Of a stretch of DNA of 27,088 nucleotides, positions 1,854-21,420 are shown piece by piece. Within the stretch, counting starts at the first letter, position 1. Each line of letters opens with the position of its first letter. The DNA is from Verrucomicrobiota bacterium (GTDB lineage: Bacteria; Verrucomicrobiota; Verrucomicrobiia; Limisphaerales; CANJSG01): NCBI GenBank assembly GCA_038209745.1, contig JBBQXJ010000064.1:1-27088 (forward strand), given 5' to 3'. The translations under genes and the position numbers were made by a program. The notes beneath the pieces are model-generated. The model had not been told where the DNA came from. It was given only the letters and a program-made list of their open reading frames with translations, and ran no database searches.

Positions 1854-2071
1854 GGTCGGGCGCAATTCGACGGACTGCGTGGGGCGAGCCTACCGGATGC
1901 CGCCCGACACTAGGCGAGCGGAAACTGAACCGAACTCTGCGCAGGAACCACGAACGGCCTCAAAGATCACTTGATCCTGGTGTTCCCCACGATTGTCCGG
2001 AAAAAAACTGCCCTCCCAACGCGAGACTCCTAAAGTCCTTCCTTCAGTCGTTCCGCAGGACCGTGCAGGAA

Positions 2072-4087
2072 ATGCCCCTAAAACTTCGCAAGATCATGAA
2101 GCCCGCCCTCAGCGCGGTGTTGACGGTCCTCTGTGGCCTGATCCTTTGGCGGGCGGCCTTCGGCGAAGCCTGGATCCGCGCCAGCTACGACTACCTCTTC
2201 CGCTTCGGCTCCCACACCGTCACCAACGACGTCGTTCTCGTGATGATGGACAACGATTCGTTCGACAGCCTGCACCAGGACCGCAACGGGACCTGGGACC
2301 GCGCGCTCCACGCCCGGCTGCTCAATCGCCTGGCCGACGACGGCTGCTCCATGGTCGTGCTCGACGCGTTTTTCCGTGGCATCAAGGATCCCGACAAGGA
2401 CGAGGCCCTGATCGAGGCGATGCGTCGAAACCGGACTCTTGTCCTCATGGCCGACCGGGCCGAAACGACCCATCCAGAGCTCATGGCCGACTACGCCGTA
2501 CTGCCGGCCAATTCGTTCCTCGACGCGGCCAAGGGCCGCTGGGGCGTCGCTTGGCTGCAGCCGGATCTCGACCTGATCGTTCGCCAACACTGGCCGGATC
2601 CTTCGCCCGGCCATTATCCAAGTCTGCCAGAAGCCGCCGCCCGCGCCGCCGGCGCCCGGCTGGACGACATGCCGCAAGAGAAATGGCTCCGATACTATGG
2701 TCGGGACGGAGCATGGACCCGTCTTGGCTATCGCTTCGCCTTGAACCAGAAGCCGGGCTATTTCCTCGGCAAGACCGTCTTCATCGGCATCGAGCCCGCC
2801 ACCCCGCGGCCGAGCCAGGAACGGGACGAGTTCTCCACACCCTACACCCGCTGGACGGGAGCATCGTCCGGCGGCGCCGAGATCCTCGCGACGGCGTTCC
2901 TCAACCTGATGAACAACGACTGGTTGCGCCGCCCGACAATCGAGTTCGAAGGCGCCGTCCTCGCGCTCTGCGGAGCAGGACTGGGCTTCTCGCTCTGGTT
3001 CATAACCGGCCGAATCAGGATCGTGCTCGCCGTCGCCGTCGCGGTGATCGCCACTCTCGGGGCCATTTTGGCCACGCACTACAGCAACTATTGGTTCCCT
3101 TGGATGTTGGTCGTCGGAGCACAGCTCCCCGTGGCCCTGGCCTACGCCTACGCCGTGCCGCGCTTTCAGCCGATGCCCGCCAAAGGCCTTTCGTCAGGAC
3201 CGGCTCCCACCGCTTCTACTGCCGTGGATCTCCCACCCGAAATGGCGGAGTACACGCCCTTCCACCCTCCTTTTGGCCGTGGCGCCTACGGCCGGGTGTG
3301 GTTGGCCAAGAACGCCATTGGTCAATGGCAGGCGCTCAAGGTCGTCTATGCATCGAACTTCTCCGAAGCCGGCCCCTACGACCGCGAGTTCAACGGTGTC
3401 AGCCGCTACAAACCCGTTTCGGACAAGAACCCCAGCCTCCTGCGCGTCGATTTCGTCAGCACCAAACGGCCGGACTACTTCTACTACGTCATGGAGCTGG
3501 GCGATTCTATCGTCCCGGACTGGCAGTCGAATCCGTCCACCTACAAGCCGCGCGATCTCATGAACGAACGGAAGAACGCGCCCCGCGGAAGACTTCCGGT
3601 CCGGGACTGCGTCCGCATCGGGCTGACCCTGGCCGACGGCCTCGGATTCCTCCACCGGCAGGGGCTGACCCACCGCGACATCAAGCCGCAGAACGTCATC
3701 TTCGTGAACGGCCAACCCAAGCTCGCCGACATCGGACTCATCGCCGAAATCCGGCCGCCCGAAGAGGAACACACCTACGTCGGGACCATCGGCTACATGC
3801 CGCCGCCACCCGAACGGCCCGGCACGGCCCAGGCCGACATCTACGCCCTCGGCATGATGCTCTTCGTGCTGGGCACCGGGAAACAGCCGAGCTTCTTCCC
3901 CGAGATCTCCACCACCTTGGCGGAGGGGACCGGATTCATGGAGTTCATCCCGCTCAATTCCGTCATCCTCACCGCCTGCCAGCCTGACCCCGCGCAGCGC
4001 TACGCCACCGCCGCCGACCTGCAACGGGCCCTCCAGGACGTGCTCGAGACCCTCGACAGTTGGGCAGCGGGTCCGGGCAAGACCTGA
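2072..4087 (+). CDS. CHASE2-domain membrane sensor fused to a Hanks-type Ser/Thr protein kinase
   Basis: N-terminal TM/signal, CHASE2-like segment (WDRALHARLLNRL..VVLDAFF..GAEILATAFLNL), about three hydrophobic helices, then kinase motifs GRGAYGRVW, ALKVV, YYVMEL, HRDIKPQN, LADIGL and GTIGYMPP. Start uncertain (2063 GTG, 2072 ATG or 2096 ATG). Confidence 0.88.
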   Translation: MPLKLRKIMKPALSAVLTVLCGLILWRAAFGEAWIRASYDYLFRFGSHTVTNDVVLVMMDNDSFDSLHQDRNGTWDRALHARLLNRLADDGCSMVVLDAFFRGIKDPDKDEALIEAMRRNRTLVLMADRAETTHPELMADYAVLPANSFLDAAKGRWGVAWLQPDLDLIVRQHWPDPSPGHYPSLPEAAARAAGARLDDMPQEKWLRYYGRDGAWTRLGYRFALNQKPGYFLGKTVFIGIEPATPRPSQERDEFSTPYTRWTGASSGGAEILATAFLNLMNNDWLRRPTIEFEGAVLALCGAGLGFSLWFITGRIRIVLAVAVAVIATLGAILATHYSNYWFPWMLVVGAQLPVALAYAYAVPRFQPMPAKGLSSGPAPTASTAVDLPPEMAEYTPFHPPFGRGAYGRVWLAKNAIGQWQALKVVYASNFSEAGPYDREFNGVSRYKPVSDKNPSLLRVDFVSTKRPDYFYYVMELGDSIVPDWQSNPSTYKPRDLMNERKNAPRGRLPVRDCVRIGLTLADGLGFLHRQGLTHRDIKPQNVIFVNGQPKLADIGLIAEIRPPEEEHTYVGTIGYMPPPPERPGTAQADIYALGMMLFVLGTGKQPSFFPEISTTLAEGTGFMEFIPLNSVILTACQPDPAQRYATAADLQRALQDVLETLDSWAAGPGKT

Positions 4088-8526: not shown

Positions 8527-11500
8527 TCACGGCGTCATCGGCTCCACCGCCTCCAGCCGGATCTCCCCGAGATCAATGCCCTCCGGCGGCGCGGGATCGG
8601 GAACCGTGAAGTTGTATTGGGCAATGGCGATGGCATTGGAAGGCTCCGCGCGAACCGGCTGGCCATCCGATCCGCGCACCGGATAAACGACCACTTGGAA
8701 CGTGTAGGTGCCCGGCTGAACGTCGTCCGCCACCAGCATCCCGCTCTCTTCCCTGCAGCTAAACCGCTTGGTTTCCGGATCGAGCCGGGGGTGCCAAGAC
8801 TTCATCCCGTTTGGTTTTCCCCAGAGCTGCTTGGGCGGAAGACTTCCGGTCGTGGCGACAAATCCGACCAAATTCGCCGCTTCTCCGGAGATCGAGGCAT
8901 CCGCCGTGCTTGCCGCAATTCGAGCCACGACCCGGGAGCCGCCGCCTCCCAGCACAACCTCCGTGATCAGGCTCGATGAAATGGTGATCCGTTCGGGATT
9001 GCCCGGAGACGAACTACCGGCGGCGTGTTTCATCGGGAAGATCGACCAATCACCCGGCGGAGCCATCGGGATGACGAACCGCCCGGACTCGTCGGTCCTG
9101 GCAGCGAACCATTGCCCCGAAGGTTGAAACGGCGCGATGCCCAACGGGCGAACGCCTGCTCGTTGCAGCACGGCGCTGGCTCCAGTCACCGGTTTCCCTT
9201 TGGCCACGATTGTTCCTTCGATTCTTCCCCAGTTTTGAAGCCTCAAAGATTCGCCTCCGCGCAACTGGTCGGGAGAAAACTCCCCGTAGCCTTTCAATCC
9301 GGCGGCGACGACCAGAAGGATGCCTTCGGCGGGCACGAGATCGATCCGTCCGTTGGCATCGGTCTGAAGAACCGGCTCCGACGACGCGTTGGAATCGAAT
9401 CCGCCTGGCTTCAGGAGAAAGCGCGTGTCTGGGCGAACCATCGCTACTTGAACAAACGACGCCGGTCCGCCATCCGGATTCAAGAAGGTCAGCGTTCTTC
9501 GCGCCTGATGCGACGGCTGCAAAACCACGGGCAACCAAACATCGCCTTCGTCTCGACCGATGGCCCGGGAGAGATACGGCAAGAAGCCCTCGGCCTCGAT
9601 CTGCACGAACCACGGCGGCGACGGTTCATCCCCGAAGGACGGGCTCTCCATCTGCTTGTCGAAACGTCCGCCCACGAACCTGTCGAAGGAAACTGCGCGC
9701 AGGTTGGTCGTGACGTTCATCTCCAGGATCTGAACTTCGCTGACGGCGAGCCTGAACTCGGGAACCAGCTCTCGGGTAGCCGCCGACCTGACTTCTCCGC
9801 GCAGCCGCAGTGCCGGGCTCAACTTGACCGTATGCTCCTGGTCATCCGCTTGAACCATCCAAGCCATTCGCCCGGCATAGCCGGAAGCCCGGATATCGAA
9901 ACTGAGTTTGCCAGCCGGGGCGTTGCTCCAGACCACCAACCCGTCCCCGTCCGTCTGCCGTTCGAACTGGGCCTGCACCTTGCTTGCTCCAGGATGGTCG
10001 TTGACGCAGTCATACCAAAGCATCGCCCCAAGAATCGGGGCTCCGTCGCGGTCCGTGACTCTGACCCGCAGCGTATTTCCTGTCGTGAGGACCAGATTCA
10101 CGGCGGGCATGTCTTTCGTCACTTTCACTTCCAGAGTCGTCGGGCTGAACCCGGAAAGGGTTGCCGTCACCAGGCTGCCACCGACACCGCAGCGGGGAAT
10201 CTCGAAGTGGCCGTCCATATCTGCCGTGCCCTTACGCTGCGACGAACCAAACCTGCTTTTGATCTGGATTCCCGCGTTGGGAACGGGGCGACCTTCGGTA
10301 TCAACCACCGCCCCGACGACATTCACGCCATCCGCGTTCAGCACGAAGCGATGGTTCAACGCTGTGAGCAAGAGAAGCTGATCCATCTCCTTACCCAGAC
10401 AGAGTGAAGCTTCAGAAACGTAGTCCTGATGGGTGGCCGACAAACAGAGACGGGGCAGGAGATCCGAGGCGATTCGGTTAATCTGCCAGCGCCCCGCGAC
10501 GTCGGACTCAACACCGTCGGACAAAATTTCATGGCTTTCCGGCCCGCGAAGATCGATTCGATCAGCGCCAAAATTGAACACGATTCTCGCCCGTGGAATC
10601 GGTGCGCCCTGGTCGTCCACTACGATGCCGCCAATCGTCTCCGCCGGAGCGAGCCGCAGCGTGTAGTCCAGAGGGATGAACTCGCCGCTCTTCGGCGTCC
10701 ATTTCAGGCGGGTGTCGGCGAGGCCGTCGATGCGGGTGGTGACTTCGAGATCGGTGATGGCGATCGGATAGTAGACGCGCGCATAGCCGTTGGTGTCGGA
10801 ATGGTAGGTCTTGTCGTTGAACTTCCCGCCTTCCCAGCCCCGTAACTCGATCTTGCCGCCGGTCACGGGTTTGTCGGTGGCGGCGTCCACCAGATAGAGC
10901 AGCAGCTTCAGTTGGCCGGCGGTGTCCTCCTCGGCCGATGCGGCTGCGCCCTTCTGGTCTCCGCCAGACACGGAGCTACCGGGTGACCTTGTCGCTGCGG
11001 CGATGTCCGCCGATGGAGTCGGGACAGAAGCCAGACGGGTCGAATCGGAGCCTCGGTGTTGGATCGCCACCGAAGCCACGATGGCCGCGATCCCAACCAT
11101 CAAAACCACCTTCGCCGGCCATCCCAAGAACCACGCCAACAGTCCGCCGCTCACGGCCGTGGCGGCGGCTTTCAACGCGGCGCCCGTGACTTCGGCCGCG
11201 AGCTGGACCGGCGGCGAGGCCGAAGCCAGGTCGATCAGCAGCGCCGCCAACGCCGCAGCGGTGGCGGAGGTGACGCCGCGCTTGGCGAGCAGGCCCCGGA
11301 GCTTGTCCAGCGCCCGGTCCACCCGCTTCCGCGCGGCGTCTTCGCCCACTCCCAGTCGGGAACCCACCTCGCCCAGCGAAAGCTTCTCGAAGAACCGCAG
11401 CAACACCGCCTCGCGGTCGGTCTCCGGCAGTTCATGCAGGGCGGTGTCGAGGATCGGGCTCATCTCCTCCCATGCAGCGGTGTCGTCCGTCGGGTTCATG

Positions 11501-11814
11501 GCGAGGGCGGTGGTTTCTCTGAGAAGACGCCGCTCGTCGCTCCGTCGCACGTTGATCGCCTGGTAGCGCGTGGTCGTGTGGAGCCAACCGGCCAAAGATC
11601 CACGCTTTCGCAGGCGATCCGCATCCCGGGCCAACGCGGCGAAGACGAGCTGGGTCACGTCTTCGGCCGAGGCAGCGCCGCCGCCGAGCTGGCGCAGGGC
11701 GGCGGAATAGACCAGCCCGAGGTGGCGGCGGACCAGTTGGCCGAACGCGGCCTCGGTTCCATCGACGGCATACGAGGTCAGCAGCTCGGAATCAGTGGGC
11801 TCAATGGGCGTCAT
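8527..11814 (-). CDS. ECF-type sigma-70 factor fused to a TM helix and multiple carboxypeptidase-regulatory-like beta-sandwich repeats
   Basis: Sigma region 2 (DSELL..Y...EAAFGQLVRRHLGLVYSAALRQL..AEDVTQLVF..LAGWL) and region 4 (LPETDREAVLLRFFEKLSLGEVGSRLGVGEDAARKRVDRALDKLR). A hydrophobic helix (VVLMVGIAAIVASVAI) follows, then repeated G.VVD..G.P[IV]..A.[IV] motifs. Confidence 0.9.
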   Translation of the reverse strand: MTPIEPTDSELLTSYAVDGTEAAFGQLVRRHLGLVYSAALRQLGGGAASAEDVTQLVFAALARDADRLRKRGSLAGWLHTTTRYQAINVRRSDERRLLRETTALAMNPTDDTAAWEEMSPILDTALHELPETDREAVLLRFFEKLSLGEVGSRLGVGEDAARKRVDRALDKLRGLLAKRGVTSATAAALAALLIDLASASPPVQLAAEVTGAALKAAATAVSGGLLAWFLGWPAKVVLMVGIAAIVASVAIQHRGSDSTRLASVPTPSADIAAATRSPGSSVSGGDQKGAAASAEEDTAGQLKLLLYLVDAATDKPVTGGKIELRGWEGGKFNDKTYHSDTNGYARVYYPIAITDLEVTTRIDGLADTRLKWTPKSGEFIPLDYTLRLAPAETIGGIVVDDQGAPIPRARIVFNFGADRIDLRGPESHEILSDGVESDVAGRWQINRIASDLLPRLCLSATHQDYVSEASLCLGKEMDQLLLLTALNHRFVLNADGVNVVGAVVDTEGRPVPNAGIQIKSRFGSSQRKGTADMDGHFEIPRCGVGGSLVTATLSGFSPTTLEVKVTKDMPAVNLVLTTGNTLRVRVTDRDGAPILGAMLWYDCVNDHPGASKVQAQFERQTDGDGLVVWSNAPAGKLSFDIRASGYAGRMAWMVQADDQEHTVKLSPALRLRGEVRSAATRELVPEFRLAVSEVQILEMNVTTNLRAVSFDRFVGGRFDKQMESPSFGDEPSPPWFVQIEAEGFLPYLSRAIGRDEGDVWLPVVLQPSHQARRTLTFLNPDGGPASFVQVAMVRPDTRFLLKPGGFDSNASSEPVLQTDANGRIDLVPAEGILLVVAAGLKGYGEFSPDQLRGGESLRLQNWGRIEGTIVAKGKPVTGASAVLQRAGVRPLGIAPFQPSGQWFAARTDESGRFVIPMAPPGDWSIFPMKHAAGSSSPGNPERITISSSLITEVVLGGGGSRVVARIAASTADASISGEAANLVGFVATTGSLPPKQLWGKPNGMKSWHPRLDPETKRFSCREESGMLVADDVQPGTYTFQVVVYPVRGSDGQPVRAEPSNAIAIAQYNFTVPDPAPPEGIDLGEIRLEAVEPMTP

Positions 11815-17393: not shown

Positions 17394-17771
17394 TCACCGC
17401 ATCCCATCCGCCCGGGCGAAGGCGAATTCCTCCACCAAGCGCCCGCCGATGAGATGCTCCTGGATGATCCGCTCCAGCACGGCGGGCGAACATCCGTGAT
17501 ACCAGACGCCATCCGGATACACGACCGCCACCGGCCCGCGCAGACAGACACGGAGGCAATTGGCCTTGGTCCGGAAGATCTGGTTGGGTCCAGCGGCGAG
17601 GCCCAGCTCCTTGAGTCGACGTTTGAGAAACTCCCAGGATTCCAGCCCCGCTTCCATCGCGCAGCACTTGGCCTCGGATTGGTCCGCGCAGAGGAAGATG
17701 TGGCGCTGGTAGGTTTCCAGACCGAGGGACTGGGCGGCGAGTTGGAGATCCGGATCGATCACAAGGGACAC
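17394..17771 (-). CDS. Thioredoxin-like [2Fe-2S] ferredoxin
   Basis: [15 protein letters not shown]...[25 protein letters not shown]...[16 protein letters not shown] at 17771 shares one base with the upstream TAG (TAGTG); an alternative GTG is at 17762. The track extension to 18017 lies inside the PafA-like gene. Confidence 0.87.
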
Positions 17772-19180
17772 TATCGTCGTCCCGACTTGTCCCCGTCCAG
17801 CCCCCTCAGCCATGCCTCGGCTTCGCTGGGCTTGGACTCGAATGGATTGAGCAGCTGGAGCGGATTGCCGCCTTCGGCTCCGATGATCTCCCAGTCGAGA
17901 TAGTAGGACGAACCGCGCCGTTGCAGCTCCCGCATCAGACCGGACCGGGCCGCCGCGCGGGAATCCGCCGGGGCCCGGAGCAGGGCTTCGGTGATCTCGG
18001 CCACCGGCACGTCCCATTCCGGGGGCGGCTTGGCCAGCGCGAGGCCCAGGCTCCGGTCGGGATCGACGGCGTGGAACTCAAGATCCTGCGACTTCAACCA
18101 AGGATCGTCCCAGGTCAGCCCTTCCTGCGCGCGGAACTGTTCGAGCAGCCAGCGCTTGGTGATCCAGTCGACCCGGCCCACCAGGTTTTCCGGGGTTCCC
18201 GCGAGCTGGACGAGCGTGTCCTTCCAGCGGGCCAGGAGAAAATCCGTCTCCGCGTCGCGACCCCGGAATTCGGCCGTCGCCGCGTCGCAATAGAGCGCCA
18301 ACATTTCGACGGCGTCGATTTCGCGACCGTCGGCCAGCTCCACCGTCCACGGCCCGTCGAGTTGGTGCGAGAGTTGGCGGAGCACTTGGACGGAGTCCAC
18401 CAAGGCGACCTTGGGCAAGTGGTCGATCTCCAACAGATCGAGGACAAGGGAAGTGGTGCCCACCTTCAACAGGAGTGAATCCGACAGCACGTTCGCATCG
18501 CCGTGCAGGAGATGGAGCCGGCGGTAGCGTCGCGCGTCGCCCAACGGTTCGTCGCGCGTGTTGATGATGGCGCGGTTGAACTGAACCCATTCAAAAAGGT
18601 CGTTGTTGATGTAGTCGGCCCGCTGGCTGATCTGGAAGAGGTTCTGCTCGCCCGGCCGCGTCAGATCGCCGCGCATCTCGGAGGCATGGGTGGATCCGAC
18701 CCGTCCGGCCCCGGTGTAGAGCACCCGCACCGTGAGGAACGCGAGGAGCGAATGGACGTTCTCCTCGGTCAAAGGAGCCGCTCGCCGAACAAGGTAGTTT
18801 TCGTGGCATCCGAAGGTCGCGCCGGAGTAGTGGTCGATGTTGTTCCGGATGAAGGCGACCTGCTCGGCGATGCCGAGATCCTTCGTCGCTTGGAGCACCA
18901 TGGCGTCACCGGCCCGATCGTAGCGCAGCACGTCGACCAGGGAGAGGCATTCGGGCGTGCAGTATTCTAGGTGGCCCATGTCCACATAGGCGCGACCGCC
19001 GTTGAAGAGGAACCCGCCGTTGCCCGCCGGTTCGTCCCAGTCACGCTGGTGTATGTCGATCAGTCCGTAGCGCTGTTGGGCGAAGATCCAGTCGCGCACC
19101 CGGGTGACCGCTCCCGGAACTCCGGGAAGGTCGTCGGCGAGGCAGCCGTATTCTGTTTCGAGCCCGACGATGCGGTTCAT
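17771..19180 (-). CDS. pafA: Pup/UBact ligase-deamidase family protein (PafA-like, 469 aa)
   Basis: [67 protein letters not shown] and [21 protein letters not shown], plus VDWITK. An AGGAG RBS precedes ATG 19180. Its position after prcA favours the ligase rather than Dop. Confidence 0.88.
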
Positions 19181-19191
19181 GCTCCGGTCTC

Positions 19192-19932
19192 CTAGAGCCC
19201 CAACGACTCCCGCGACAGCGTTTCGAAACGGGCCAGCTTGGCCGCACGACGCGACAACCAGCCGATCTCGACGACCCGATCCTGCAAGTCCGTCTTCCAG
19301 CCCGCCGTGCGTTCGGCCTGATCCGGCGCTTCGGCTCCGAGCGGCTTGGCGTGCGTCAAACACCACCAGGTTTCCAGCATCCGAGCCGCCGCTTCCGCGG
19401 GTTGGCTGGAAGCGTTGAGGTGCGAATGGAGAAACGCGGCCGCTTCGGTCTCGCGCCCGGGCTGGCTCGCCGCCACGAGAATGCCGCCGTGCCGCGACTG
19501 GAACGTCCCGTCGAACCGAAGCCGGAAGAGAAGGTCCTTTTCCGGCGAGTCGCCCAGTTCCGCCAAGATCAGCTCGATCAGGAAAGGCGCGGAAAAAATC
19601 TGTTCAAACGCCGTTTTCAGCTGCGGACCCAGTCCGAAGCCGATCAACCGTCGCAGGCTCACGTCTTCCGGAGCGCGCGTGAAGGCCTCCAAATGCGCGG
19701 CATCGATCGCCGCTTGGCGGATCTTTTCAATGTCCGCTGGATGGCCCAGTCCGGCCATCGCATGCCGGTCGAAAAGCTCGAACACCTTCGACTGCCCGCT
19801 GCCGACGCCGAGCAACAGGATTCCGTCGTCCAGACTGGCGGCGAAGACGGGAGAGCCGTCCTTCAACTGCTCACGGACGTAGTCGCGGCGGTTCGCGACC
19901 GCTTCGAGCCAACGATAGGGTTCTTCGGTCAT
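19192..19932 (-). CDS. prcA: 20S proteasome alpha subunit (246 aa)
   Basis: MTEEPYRWLEAVANRRDYVREQLKDGSPV..., SKVFELFDRHAMAGLGHPAD, FTRAPEDVS and PFLIELILAELG..FDG align with bacterial PrcA. ATG 19932 overlaps the beta stop (ATGA). Confidence 0.85.
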   Translation of the reverse strand: MTEEPYRWLEAVANRRDYVREQLKDGSPVFAASLDDGILLLGVGSGQSKVFELFDRHAMAGLGHPADIEKIRQAAIDAAHLEAFTRAPEDVSLRRLIGFGLGPQLKTAFEQIFSAPFLIELILAELGDSPEKDLLFRLRFDGTFQSRHGGILVAASQPGRETEAAAFLHSHLNASSQPAEAAARMLETWWCLTHAKPLGAEAPDQAERTAGWKTDLQDRVVEIGWLSRRAAKLARFETLSRESLGL

Positions 19933-20702
19933 GCCTGTAGCCACTCCTTCTGTTCCGCATCGGTGATCGTCACCACGCCTTCTGGCTTCAACAGCTTCAA
20001 CGTCGCGAAGCTGTCCGTCGTCGGATCCACCCCGCCCGTGGCCGAGTCGAACTCCGACGCCGTGATCAACAGCCGCAGGGCGAACTGGACCGCTTCCTTG
20101 ATCTTCATCTCCGTCGGCTTCGGCGATCCGTGCCGTTCCTGGAAGCTGAGCACGCTGCGGATCGAGCCCGAACCCGAACCTGAAGCCGCGTATCCGACCG
20201 CTTGGAACTGCGCACCCAGCGGGTCGTAGAAGTAGATCCTCGGCTTCGCCGGAACCGTGGAGGTATCGAGCCCGGCGAAGAGAGGCGCCACGATCCCGAT
20301 CCCTTGGAGGGTCATCGGAAGATTGTCGCGGAGCAGCCGCGCGAGGGCGCGCACCTTGGCCGGCAGACTGAGCGACTGCAGCTGGCTGCGCCGGTAGTAC
20401 TCGAAGGACGTCTGCATCACGCGCGCCATCTCGAAAGCCGTGGCCGGAACCCCGGCAATGGCGAGGAGCGACGTGGCGTCGATCTCCAGCACCTTGTCGA
20501 CGCGGTCGGTGACGATCTGGTTGCCGGCGGTGGCCCGCCGATCCCCGGCCATTAAGACTCCGTCGGCACACTGGAAAGCAAAGACGGTGGTCGCCTGCGT
20601 GGGAGTGAACCCGCCGGCTCCGCCCACAACGTCGGGCCGGAAAGGAGCAAGGCTGTTTCCGGCCAGAAGGGAGAGAAAATCGCCCGCGATGGATTGCGTC
20701 AT
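19929..20702 (-). CDS. prcB: 20S proteasome beta subunit with propeptide (257 aa)
   Basis: 37-aa propeptide then TTVFAF. Numbering from that Thr gives Asp17 (AGDRRAT) and Lys33 (VDKV), and SGSGS and DSATGG are also present. ATG overlaps the UBact stop (ATGA). Confidence 0.92.
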   Translation of the reverse strand: MTQSIAGDFLSLLAGNSLAPFRPDVVGGAGGFTPTQATTVFAFQCADGVLMAGDRRATAGNQIVTDRVDKVLEIDATSLLAIAGVPATAFEMARVMQTSFEYYRRSQLQSLSLPAKVRALARLLRDNLPMTLQGIGIVAPLFAGLDTSTVPAKPRIYFYDPLGAQFQAVGYAASGSGSGSIRSVLSFQERHGSPKPTEMKIKEAVQFALRLLITASEFDSATGGVDPTTDSFATLKLLKPEGVVTITDAEQKEWLQA

Positions 20703-20872
20703 TGGCCGGTGCGTTGGCGATAGCGCTTGGCTTGGTCTGGATCGACCTTCCGCATCCGTTTCAAGAGCTCGTCGGTGTTGGGCTTGTCGACATTGGGAGC
20801 GGAGGGGCCTTCACCTCCGCCACCGCCGGAGCCGGGAGTCATGGGGCGTGTTTTTTGGGCTTGGTCAGGCAT
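20699..20872 (-). CDS. ubact: UBact, ubiquitin/Pup-analogous protein modifier (57 aa); not in the supplied ORF track
   Basis: Hand translation: MPDQAQKTRPMTPGSGGGGGEGPSAPNVDKPNTDELLKRMRKVDPDQAKRYRQRTGQ*. The C-terminal LLKRMRKVDP..AKRYRQRTG[EQ] is the UBact signature, and the stop overlaps the prcB start. Confidence 0.93.
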   Translation of the reverse strand: MPDQAQKTRPMTPGSGGGGGEGPSAPNVDKPNTDELLKRMRKVDPDQAKRYRQRTGQ

Positions 20873-21420
20873 AACGTCTACGAGGCTTCAGGGGTTGTCC
20901 TATCCGCGCCAAATTCGCAGAATTCTCCGCCTGCGCAAGGGCGGGAAGACACGACAGCGGAAACCATCAAACATTCGGAGGATCTCTTCAAAACAGCGAG
21001 GCCATGAGTGCCCGACGACGGGGTCCAAGACGTCGAACAGAAGGCCACCAACCCACAAACATACGGGCCTTTCTGAACAAATTCTCCCAACGGAGACTCG
21101 GGATACCGCGAATGCGCCCCAGCCCGGGCAAGGCCGACGTGTCGAAGACGAATCGATGGACTACCCCGCCCGCCCGTCGCCGGTCGGTTGAACTGGCAAT
21201 GTCGGAAGGATCCACCACGAGAAATGAAAAACCTTTGGCGCTCTGGAATCCGTCGAGAAATCCAACTCCCAACAAAAGCTCCACCTGCAACCCCACACAA
21301 CGGTGAGGTCGATCTGCAACGGGTCCCCGGCGAGGTGCGGGTAAGAAGTCCGCGTCGCCGTCCGTTGGGGGGATCCTTCTTGCCGGGCAACTTTGCTGCT
21401 GTTGAAATGATCCTACGCGT

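Follow-up and report, generated by a model that had tools for sequence, protein, structure and literature searches.

A UBact-type proteasome operon in a Verrucomicrobiota bacterium and its partner genes on a second contig

Organization of the operon

The window analyzed here is a 27,088-nucleotide stretch of DNA from a Verrucomicrobiota bacterium (contig JBBQXJ010000064.1 of assembly GCA_038209745.1, positions 1 to 27,088 of the forward strand). Five genes, ubact, prcB, prcA, a pafA-like gene and a ferredoxin gene, run in the same direction on its minus strand (Table 1). The first four very probably make up the core operon of a UBact-proteasome system, which in Gram-negative bacteria corresponds to the Pup-proteasome system of Actinobacteria. 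UBact was reportedly named in 2017 by Lehmann, Udasin, Livneh and Ciechanover, who are said to have described UBact-proteasome loci of Gram-negative phyla. An original prediction, made from the sequence alone, had proposed a five-gene minus-strand operon with short overlaps or spacers at its junctions, and both the gene order and the junctions are borne out by the list of open reading frames (ORFs) and by a base-by-base reading of the sequence.

Table 1. Features of the UBact-proteasome operon (positions in the window)
Feature	Position	Strand	Description
ubact	20699-20872 (including stop codon)	minus	57-residue ubiquitin-like tag ending RQRTGQ
prcB	19929-20702	minus	20S proteasome beta subunit, 257 residues
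prcA	19192-19932	minus	divergent 20S proteasome alpha subunit, 246 residues
pafA-like	17771-19180	minus	Pup-ligase-family enzyme, 469 residues, predicted UBact ligase
ferredoxin gene	17394-17771	minus	thioredoxin-like [2Fe-2S] ferredoxin, about 122-125 residues
candidate promoter motif	20915-20939	minus	conserved block ending 42 nt before the ubact ATG

The stop codon of ubact and the start codon of prcB share an ATGA at 20699-20702, and the stop codon of prcB and the start codon of prcA share another at 19929-19932. The prcA TAG (19192-19194) is followed by an 11-nt spacer and then by the pafA-like ATG at 19180, with an AGGAG that overlaps the prcA stop codon 8 nt ahead of this ATG. The start codon of the ferredoxin gene is ambiguous. 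One in-frame GTG, at 17771, shares the G of the pafA-like TAG (17771-17773). Another lies in frame 9 nt beyond it, at 17762, and with this one as the start the gap would be 8 nt.

The five genes form a bounded unit, as a convergent gene ends 19 nt past the ferredoxin stop codon and a divergent GH127 glycosidase gene begins 548 nt upstream of ubact. The overlaps of start and stop codons imply that tag, protease and ligase are encoded on a single transcript and that their translation is coupled. None of the five ORFs is interrupted. Hidden Markov model (HMM) E-values of 1.7e-24 (UBact), 3.4e-25 (Proteasome) and 1.3e-111 (Pup_ligase) argue that this arrangement is not due to chance. It is also not an assembly artefact, because the fdx/pafA-like, pafA-like/prcA/prcB and prcB/ubact/upstream junctions are spanned by contigs of an independent soil metagenome (run X15). 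At least half of the sampled words of the stretch are present in DNA contigs of 19 sediment and soil runs.

The tag, the putative ligase and the proteasome subunits

UBact scores 85.7 bits with Pfam PF20513 and 87.4 bits with the NCBIfam equivalog NF033388, above the respective cut-offs of 27.8 and 35. PF20513 is its sole match in Pfam, the Pup model not being matched. The last 27 residues are nearly invariant among 20 orthologues, and the conserved C-terminus has the form ...RYRQRTG[QE], with Gln as the terminal residue in 21 of 25 sequences and Glu in 4 of 25. In passages of Iyer, Burroughs and Aravind (2008; PMC2588565), a G[EQ] end is the signature of Pup-like tags, and tags of this kind are already reported in Verrucomicrobia. 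The UBact of the window is a small protein with a Gly-Gln end (RTGQ), and genes for a proteasome and a Pup-ligase-family enzyme adjoin its own. Because it ends in Gln, a deamidase would be needed before ligation, by analogy with Pup.

The product of the pafA-like gene passes the cut-off of PF03136 (Pup_ligase; 374.1 bits). Collinearity of this protein with C. glutamicum PafA extends over residues 3-455, and its Asp67 aligns with the catalytic Asp64 of that enzyme (Asn in the 4bjr mutant). Its structural model (pLDDT 86) has the PafA-Pup complex 4bjr as top fold match. A complex of UBact with the PafA-like protein, predicted from alignments of 53 ligases (A3) and 20 tags (A2), scored 0.86, 0.83 and 0.84 (best of three controls: 0.00) and so passes a mark that 116 of 157 solved complexes attain, as do 2 of 215 mismatched pairs. 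At least 37% of the contacts agree between the runs, and the pLDDT of the partners is at least 51. The predicted contacts join residues 32-57 of UBact (the conserved half) to residues 345-382 of the ligase and to its active-site residues 8-16, 67-70 and 111-126. In this model the conserved C-terminus of UBact would lie in the groove and active site of the ligase as Pup does on PafA (4bjr), which suggests a likeness between the two rather than binding as such.

PrcB passes the cut-off of PF00227 (89.2 bits). In an alignment with the mature beta chains of Rhodococcus and M. tuberculosis, a propeptide of 37 residues precedes residue 38, which falls on residue 1, and Thr38, Asp54 and Lys70 correspond to Thr1, Asp17 (GDRRAT) and Lys33 (DKV) of these chains. 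PrcA has no Pfam match even at E-values of up to 10. The AlphaFold model of this protein (alignment A1, 21 orthologues; pLDDT 89.8, pTM 0.88) shows a helix at residues 3-23, in the manner of the N-terminal H0 helix. Its best PDB matches are the 20S alpha chains of Rhodococcus and M. tuberculosis (E-value: 6.6e-14, TM 0.73-0.86, 18-20% identity), and the top 500 PDB matches listed all have E-values of 0.001 or lower. PrcA is thus predicted to fold as an actinobacterial-type 20S alpha subunit. The gene calls that had been made by eye were all confirmed by HMM or by fold: UBact, PrcB and the ligase pass their Pfam cut-offs, while PrcA is identified by its fold.

In the whole genome, PF00227 has a single match, the prcB of the window. 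An HslV-like protein was not found in this 92% complete genome by a search that detects HslV-type proteins in control bacteria.

Partner genes and distribution of UBact loci

Neither a deamidase nor an unfoldase was found among the proteins of the window. The genome to which it belongs, a metagenome-assembled genome (MAG) of 4.58 Mb in 140 contigs (92% complete, 2.6% contamination), contains exactly two Pup_ligase members and a single copy each of UBact, a PF00227 protein and an Mpa-like gene. On another contig (C1), a Dop-like gene directly follows the gene for the Mpa-like ATPase. The Dop-like enzyme aligns collinearly with the solved A. cellulolyticus Dop along its entire length (residues 19-488 against 5-473), Dop-loop included, with bit scores of 349 for Dop and 232 for PafA. 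The Mpa-like ATPase has an OB-OB-AAA architecture with matches to PF17758, PF16450 and PF00004, and its score with M. tuberculosis Mpa is 318 bits. The set lacks no gene, but its members are divided between two loci. The intact tag-and-degrade system of the original prediction therefore holds for the genome as a whole but not for the window alone, in which UBact ends in Gln and from which the Dop-like and Mpa-like genes are missing. Upstream of mpa-dop on C1, at a distance of 3-7 kb (L003:224-4394), are genes for a circularly permuted ATP-grasp/alpha-E protein and a transglutaminase-like protein and two HSP20 genes.

Among 8000 candidates scored, 6733 relatives of the PafA-like protein were found at E-values of 1e-10 or lower, and the named ones are proteins of Verrucomicrobiota MAGs. 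In a sample of 201 genomes from across the phylum, 7 have a UBact above the cut-off, and among 41 closer relatives it is found in 19, including all six of the same genus; the operon genes are 67-91% identical wherever same-genus contigs reach them. A pattern scan of species-representative genomes yielded at least 600 matches, 558 of which were confirmed as UBact loci. Gene maps cover the best 80 of these at least 558 loci, and the counts of gene neighbours given here and below are taken from the mapped loci with enough flank. The 80 loci are nearly all from Verrucomicrobiota (Limisphaerales, Pedosphaera, Methylacidiphilales, Chthoniobacterales and Opitutales). Most of them have the canonical order mpa-dop-ubact-prcB-prcA-pafA, and overlapping junctions are the norm. 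A dop gene lies directly upstream in 50 of 69 loci and is detached, as in the window, in 19 of 69; a pafA-like gene lies downstream in 49 of 70. The non-actinobacterial host that had been proposed agrees with these data, the closest named homologues and loci being those of Verrucomicrobiota/Limisphaerales MAGs.

Several loci depart from the canonical order. Five that are labelled Chthoniobacterales (L085, L087, L101, L102 and L104) consist of ubact-prcB-prcA with no flanking dop upstream or pafA-like gene downstream, and the UBact system is more dispersed in this lineage. The same three genes, again with no dop upstream or pafA-like gene downstream within the flanks, are found in L082 (labelled Verrucomicrobiae), L004 and L007. 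Three loci from MAG records titled Klebsiella pneumoniae (L034), Klebsiella sp. (L046) and Akkermansia muciniphila (L051) encode tags 84% identical to that of the window. L034 and L046 contain mpa, dop, ubact and prcB, and L051 has the full six-gene order. The organism labels of these three loci are probably wrong.

The prcB-prcA junction, which is an ATGA overlap in the window, carries a different insertion in each of the same-genus relatives (L014:1779-2275, L015:4725-5256, L016:8914-9335, L017:6950-7173 and L012:8829-8967). Three of these insertions are 420-530 bp long and contain unrelated small ORFs (Cys-rich, lipoprotein-like and membrane-like), and the other two, of 140-225 bp, are hairpin or inverted-repeat elements. 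Within the operon, the junction seems to be a hot spot for insertions.

Upstream of ubact, a CTTG...TTCTGCGA block is kept in all ten of the detached loci that were aligned, though it varies in the most distant of them, and may be regarded as a candidate promoter. A regulon linking the two loci through this motif was considered and rejected, as the strict pattern had two matches in the genome and the reversed control also had two. A sigma-70 consensus scan of the region gave no promoters, a terminator scan gave five terminator-like sites where 3.9 were expected, and an Rfam search of the window gave no matches.

Two other genes of the window encode proteins of note. The gene at 8527-11814 (minus strand) encodes a protein of 1095 residues in which an N-terminal ECF-type sigma-70 region 2/4 is fused to CarboxypepD_reg and Ig-like domains, an unusual fusion. 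The gene at 2063-4087 (plus strand) encodes a CHASE2-Ser/Thr kinase.

Alternative readings, proposed model and significance

The PafA-like protein could be the UBact ligase or, alternatively, a second Dop-type hydrolase or a bifunctional enzyme, in which case tagging would be done differently or by both paralogues. Structural discriminators of PafA and Dop, with diagnostic residues, are defined in parts of Hecht 2020 (PMC7947786). According to these, a Dop-loop of roughly 40 residues is absent from PafA, the alpha-loop region is a helix in PafA and forms a loop in Dop, and the PafA-specific alpha-loop residues are His, Trp, Glu, Gly, Ser, Ser, Ala, Arg and Ser (Table 1 of that paper). The same parts of the paper place Nitrospirae PafA and Dop in two separate clades and, in favour of a bifunctional enzyme, describe mixed PafA/Dop variants that are capable of both reactions. 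The diagnostic positions were read on HMMER alignments of the PafA-like protein. Its residues 21-49 match residues 21-75 of Dop, so that this region is about 26 residues shorter and most of the Dop-loop is gone; the protein is collinear with PafA over its full length. Ala at position 3, Phe at 7, Gly at 11 and Asp at 46 are of PafA type, and positions 4 and 10 carry residues similar to those of PafA. In the alpha-loop region, where PafA has a helix, one is also predicted for residues 194-202, with a pLDDT of only 54-58. Several observations weigh against a ligase. The residues at positions 9 (Val, before the catalytic Asp) and 15 (Pro, after the EY.T motif) are of Dop type, and the alpha-loop is without the signature residues of PafA and agrees with neither of the two signatures, PafA or Dop, given in Hecht 2020. 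The full-length match to the PafA model TIGR03686 (254.6 bits) is under the cut-off of 551.3 and below the partial match to the Dop model (281.7 bits), and solved structures of Dop (209.6 bits) score higher than those of PafA (182.8 bits). Fold was discarded as a discriminator, since Foldseek matches PafA (E-value: 1.0e-32) and Dop (4.9e-32) almost equally well. However, the genome already encodes a clearly Dop-like paralogue, and 66 PafA-like and 66 Dop-like orthologues separate sharply into two classes with distinct, conserved signatures and different alpha-loop sequences. The position of the active-site motif, with the exception of a few rows, is about residue 71 in the PafA-like class and about 104-126 in the Dop-like class. 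From these sequence comparisons it is concluded that the PafA-like protein is in all likelihood a ligase, with a small chance left for a hydrolase or a bifunctional enzyme.

Ten tblastn read-outs of PafA-like orthologues contain one in-frame stop each, and nine of these are read-through past the natural stop. In the remaining one (L106:9701-11113), the stop is at a conserved Trp position (DP*LEAQDLEYH) and may reflect a pseudogene, a sequencing error or a recoded codon.

The place of the ferredoxin in the system was weighed in the same way. This protein aligns with Aquifex Fd4 (1f37; E-value: 7.4e-13) at all four Cys ligands, one of which is marked by the C55S mutant entry, and contains the four-Cys pattern C-x(n)-C-x(n)-C-x3-C. 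It belongs to the same fold family as the Aquifex aeolicus Fd4 and Clostridium pasteurianum ferredoxins, with the four ligands aligned, but differs from them in an N-terminal extension of about 20 residues and in falling under the NCBIfam equivalog cut-offs (NF041612: 43.4 bits; cut-off 150). To our knowledge, thioredoxin-like [2Fe-2S] ferredoxins have no link to protein tagging. Were the ferredoxin to function within the system in this lineage, for instance as a redox or iron sensor that modulates the ligase, its translational coupling would be explained, as its start codon overlaps the pafA-like stop codon or lies 8 nt after it. The gene is directly downstream of the pafA-like gene in all five same-genus genomes with both genes on one contig, it lies 1 kb downstream of the ligase gene, behind an alpha/beta-hydrolase gene, in a genome of another family (G235), and all 19 UBact-positive relatives have a homologue. 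However, the ferredoxin gene follows the ligase gene in only 1 of 48 mapped loci, and that locus is from the same genus. Elsewhere among the UBact-positive relatives, beyond the genus and G235, a different contig carries the homologue. Homologues are found in 33 of 41 relatives overall, including 14 of the 22 that are UBact-negative, and related genomes are not independent, so that synteny in one genus is weak evidence. Because it is present in UBact-negative relatives and rarely beside the ligase, the ferredoxin gene appears to be widely kept independently of UBact; it is probably a lineage-specific neighbour and not part of the UBact system, and as a system component it was rejected on phylogenetic profile and synteny. 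Of the ferredoxin's proposed membership of the operon, the physical coupling stands and the conserved role in UBact systems does not. A working role in this lineage, with nothing but the local coupling in its favour, seems distinctly unlikely. Just as doubtful is the further idea that in this genus the ferredoxin was recruited as a redox- or iron-sensing partner that tunes UBact ligation, and that the ligase, with an alpha-loop resembling neither that of PafA nor that of Dop, chooses its targets in a non-actinobacterial way. If true, such a partner would tie proteasomal degradation to oxidative or iron stress.

It is also conceivable, though very improbable, that the operon is a non-functional, decaying or silent remnant of a horizontally acquired system. 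The patchy occurrence of UBact in the phylum, the split of the system over two loci and the various prcB-prcA insertions of same-genus relatives would fit such decay. Against it stand the five open ORFs with intact catalytic residues, the UBact orthologues in every same-genus genome, the identity of the operon genes among these genomes and the presence of Mpa-like and Dop-like genes. Contigs from an RNA library also match the operon: in metatranscriptome X20 (0.06 of the sampled words), one matches prcA over 161 nt with two differences and another matches prcB over 167 nt with none. These contigs, which cannot show transcript ends or co-transcription, are a weak hint of operon expression. A third X20 contig was rejected as a sign of ferredoxin expression, as its partial match of 40 nt runs into unlike sequence and is probably from another organism.

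Further results weigh against the assignment of the operon to a UBact-proteasome system. PrcB scores 146.1 bits against TIGR03690, a model built on Actinobacteria, which is under the cut-off of 191.9, and has Ala at position -1 where the Rhodococcus and M. tuberculosis beta chains have Gly. PrcA scores 59.2 bits against TIGR03691 (cut-off 139.05), with only residues 11-154 covered. The Dop-like enzyme (444.9 bits against TIGR03688; cut-off 492.3) and the Mpa-like ATPase (418.7 bits against TIGR03689; cut-off 504.75) are likewise under their cut-offs. The 20S docking motif of M. tuberculosis Mpa is GQYL; a Tyr-containing docking motif is absent from the C-terminus of the Mpa-like protein (...SSGVI; L003:7654-9366), and ten orthologues end in GVV, AVV, SIV, GIV, RVV or STI. 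The pass of the complex model may stem from the solved Pup-PafA complex 4bjr. The mpa and dop genes are on another contig of an incomplete and slightly contaminated MAG; however, Dop-like genes are off the ubact contig in all five related genomes tested, which argues that the split is not a binning accident. Full-text literature searches found no experimental study of UBact biochemistry and no paper naming UBact in its title or abstract, in agreement with the original prediction that this biochemistry is largely untested.

The proposed model for the UBact-proteasome system is as follows. UBact is made with a C-terminal Gln, which the Dop-like enzyme encoded on C1 would deamidate to Glu. The groove of the PafA-like enzyme would bind the conserved C-terminal half of UBact, as homology suggests and the complex model supports; by homology, this enzyme would then phosphorylate the terminal gamma-carboxylate with ATP and join UBact to lysines of target proteins. 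PrcB, in which the catalytic residues are present, would activate itself by removing its 37-residue propeptide to expose Thr38. Tagged proteins would be recognized and unfolded by a hexamer of the Mpa-like ATPase, which is predicted to dock on the assembled PrcA/PrcB 20S particle and feed them into it. The Dop-like enzyme probably also removes the tag.

Compared with other UBact loci of Gram-negative phyla, that of the window has the same tag family (above both curated cut-offs), the same gene set (Mpa, Dop, UBact, PrcB, PrcA and PafA) and the tightly coupled ubact-prcB-prcA-pafA order of most of the mapped loci. It differs in the detachment of mpa-dop, which it shares with the 19 loci noted above, and in the coupling of a ferredoxin gene to the ligase gene, which is specific to this genus. 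The actinobacterial Pup systems of M. tuberculosis, C. glutamicum and Rhodococcus have the same enzyme folds and catalytic residues. In both types of system the tag ends in Gln and has to be deamidated, and a Dop paralogue that has the Dop-loop is accompanied by a ligase paralogue that has none; the predicted tag-in-groove mode resembles 4bjr. In contrast to the actinobacterial systems, the tag of the window matches PF20513 and not the Pfam Pup model, and the equivalog models for PrcB, PrcA, PafA, Dop and Mpa are all under cut-off. The ligase has an alpha-loop of a third type, the Mpa-like C-terminus is without the Tyr-containing motif, PrcB has Ala at position -1, and PrcA is only 18-20% identical.

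The operon is a real, intact and typical copy of a common type, which is represented by at least 558 loci and by curated Pfam and NCBIfam models and was reportedly described in 2017. The locus adds no new principle. What is added here is that the signatures of the UBact-type ligase and deamidase paralogues are sharply distinct, conserved and unlike the actinobacterial diagnostic residues, that the unfoldase of a UBact system is without the Tyr docking motif, and that the ferredoxin is not to be counted as a component of the UBact system. Environmental Verrucomicrobiota commonly have UBact systems, as do other Gram-negative phyla, and this locus is a clean, compact and fully open copy with its partners identified, usable as a template for reconstitution.

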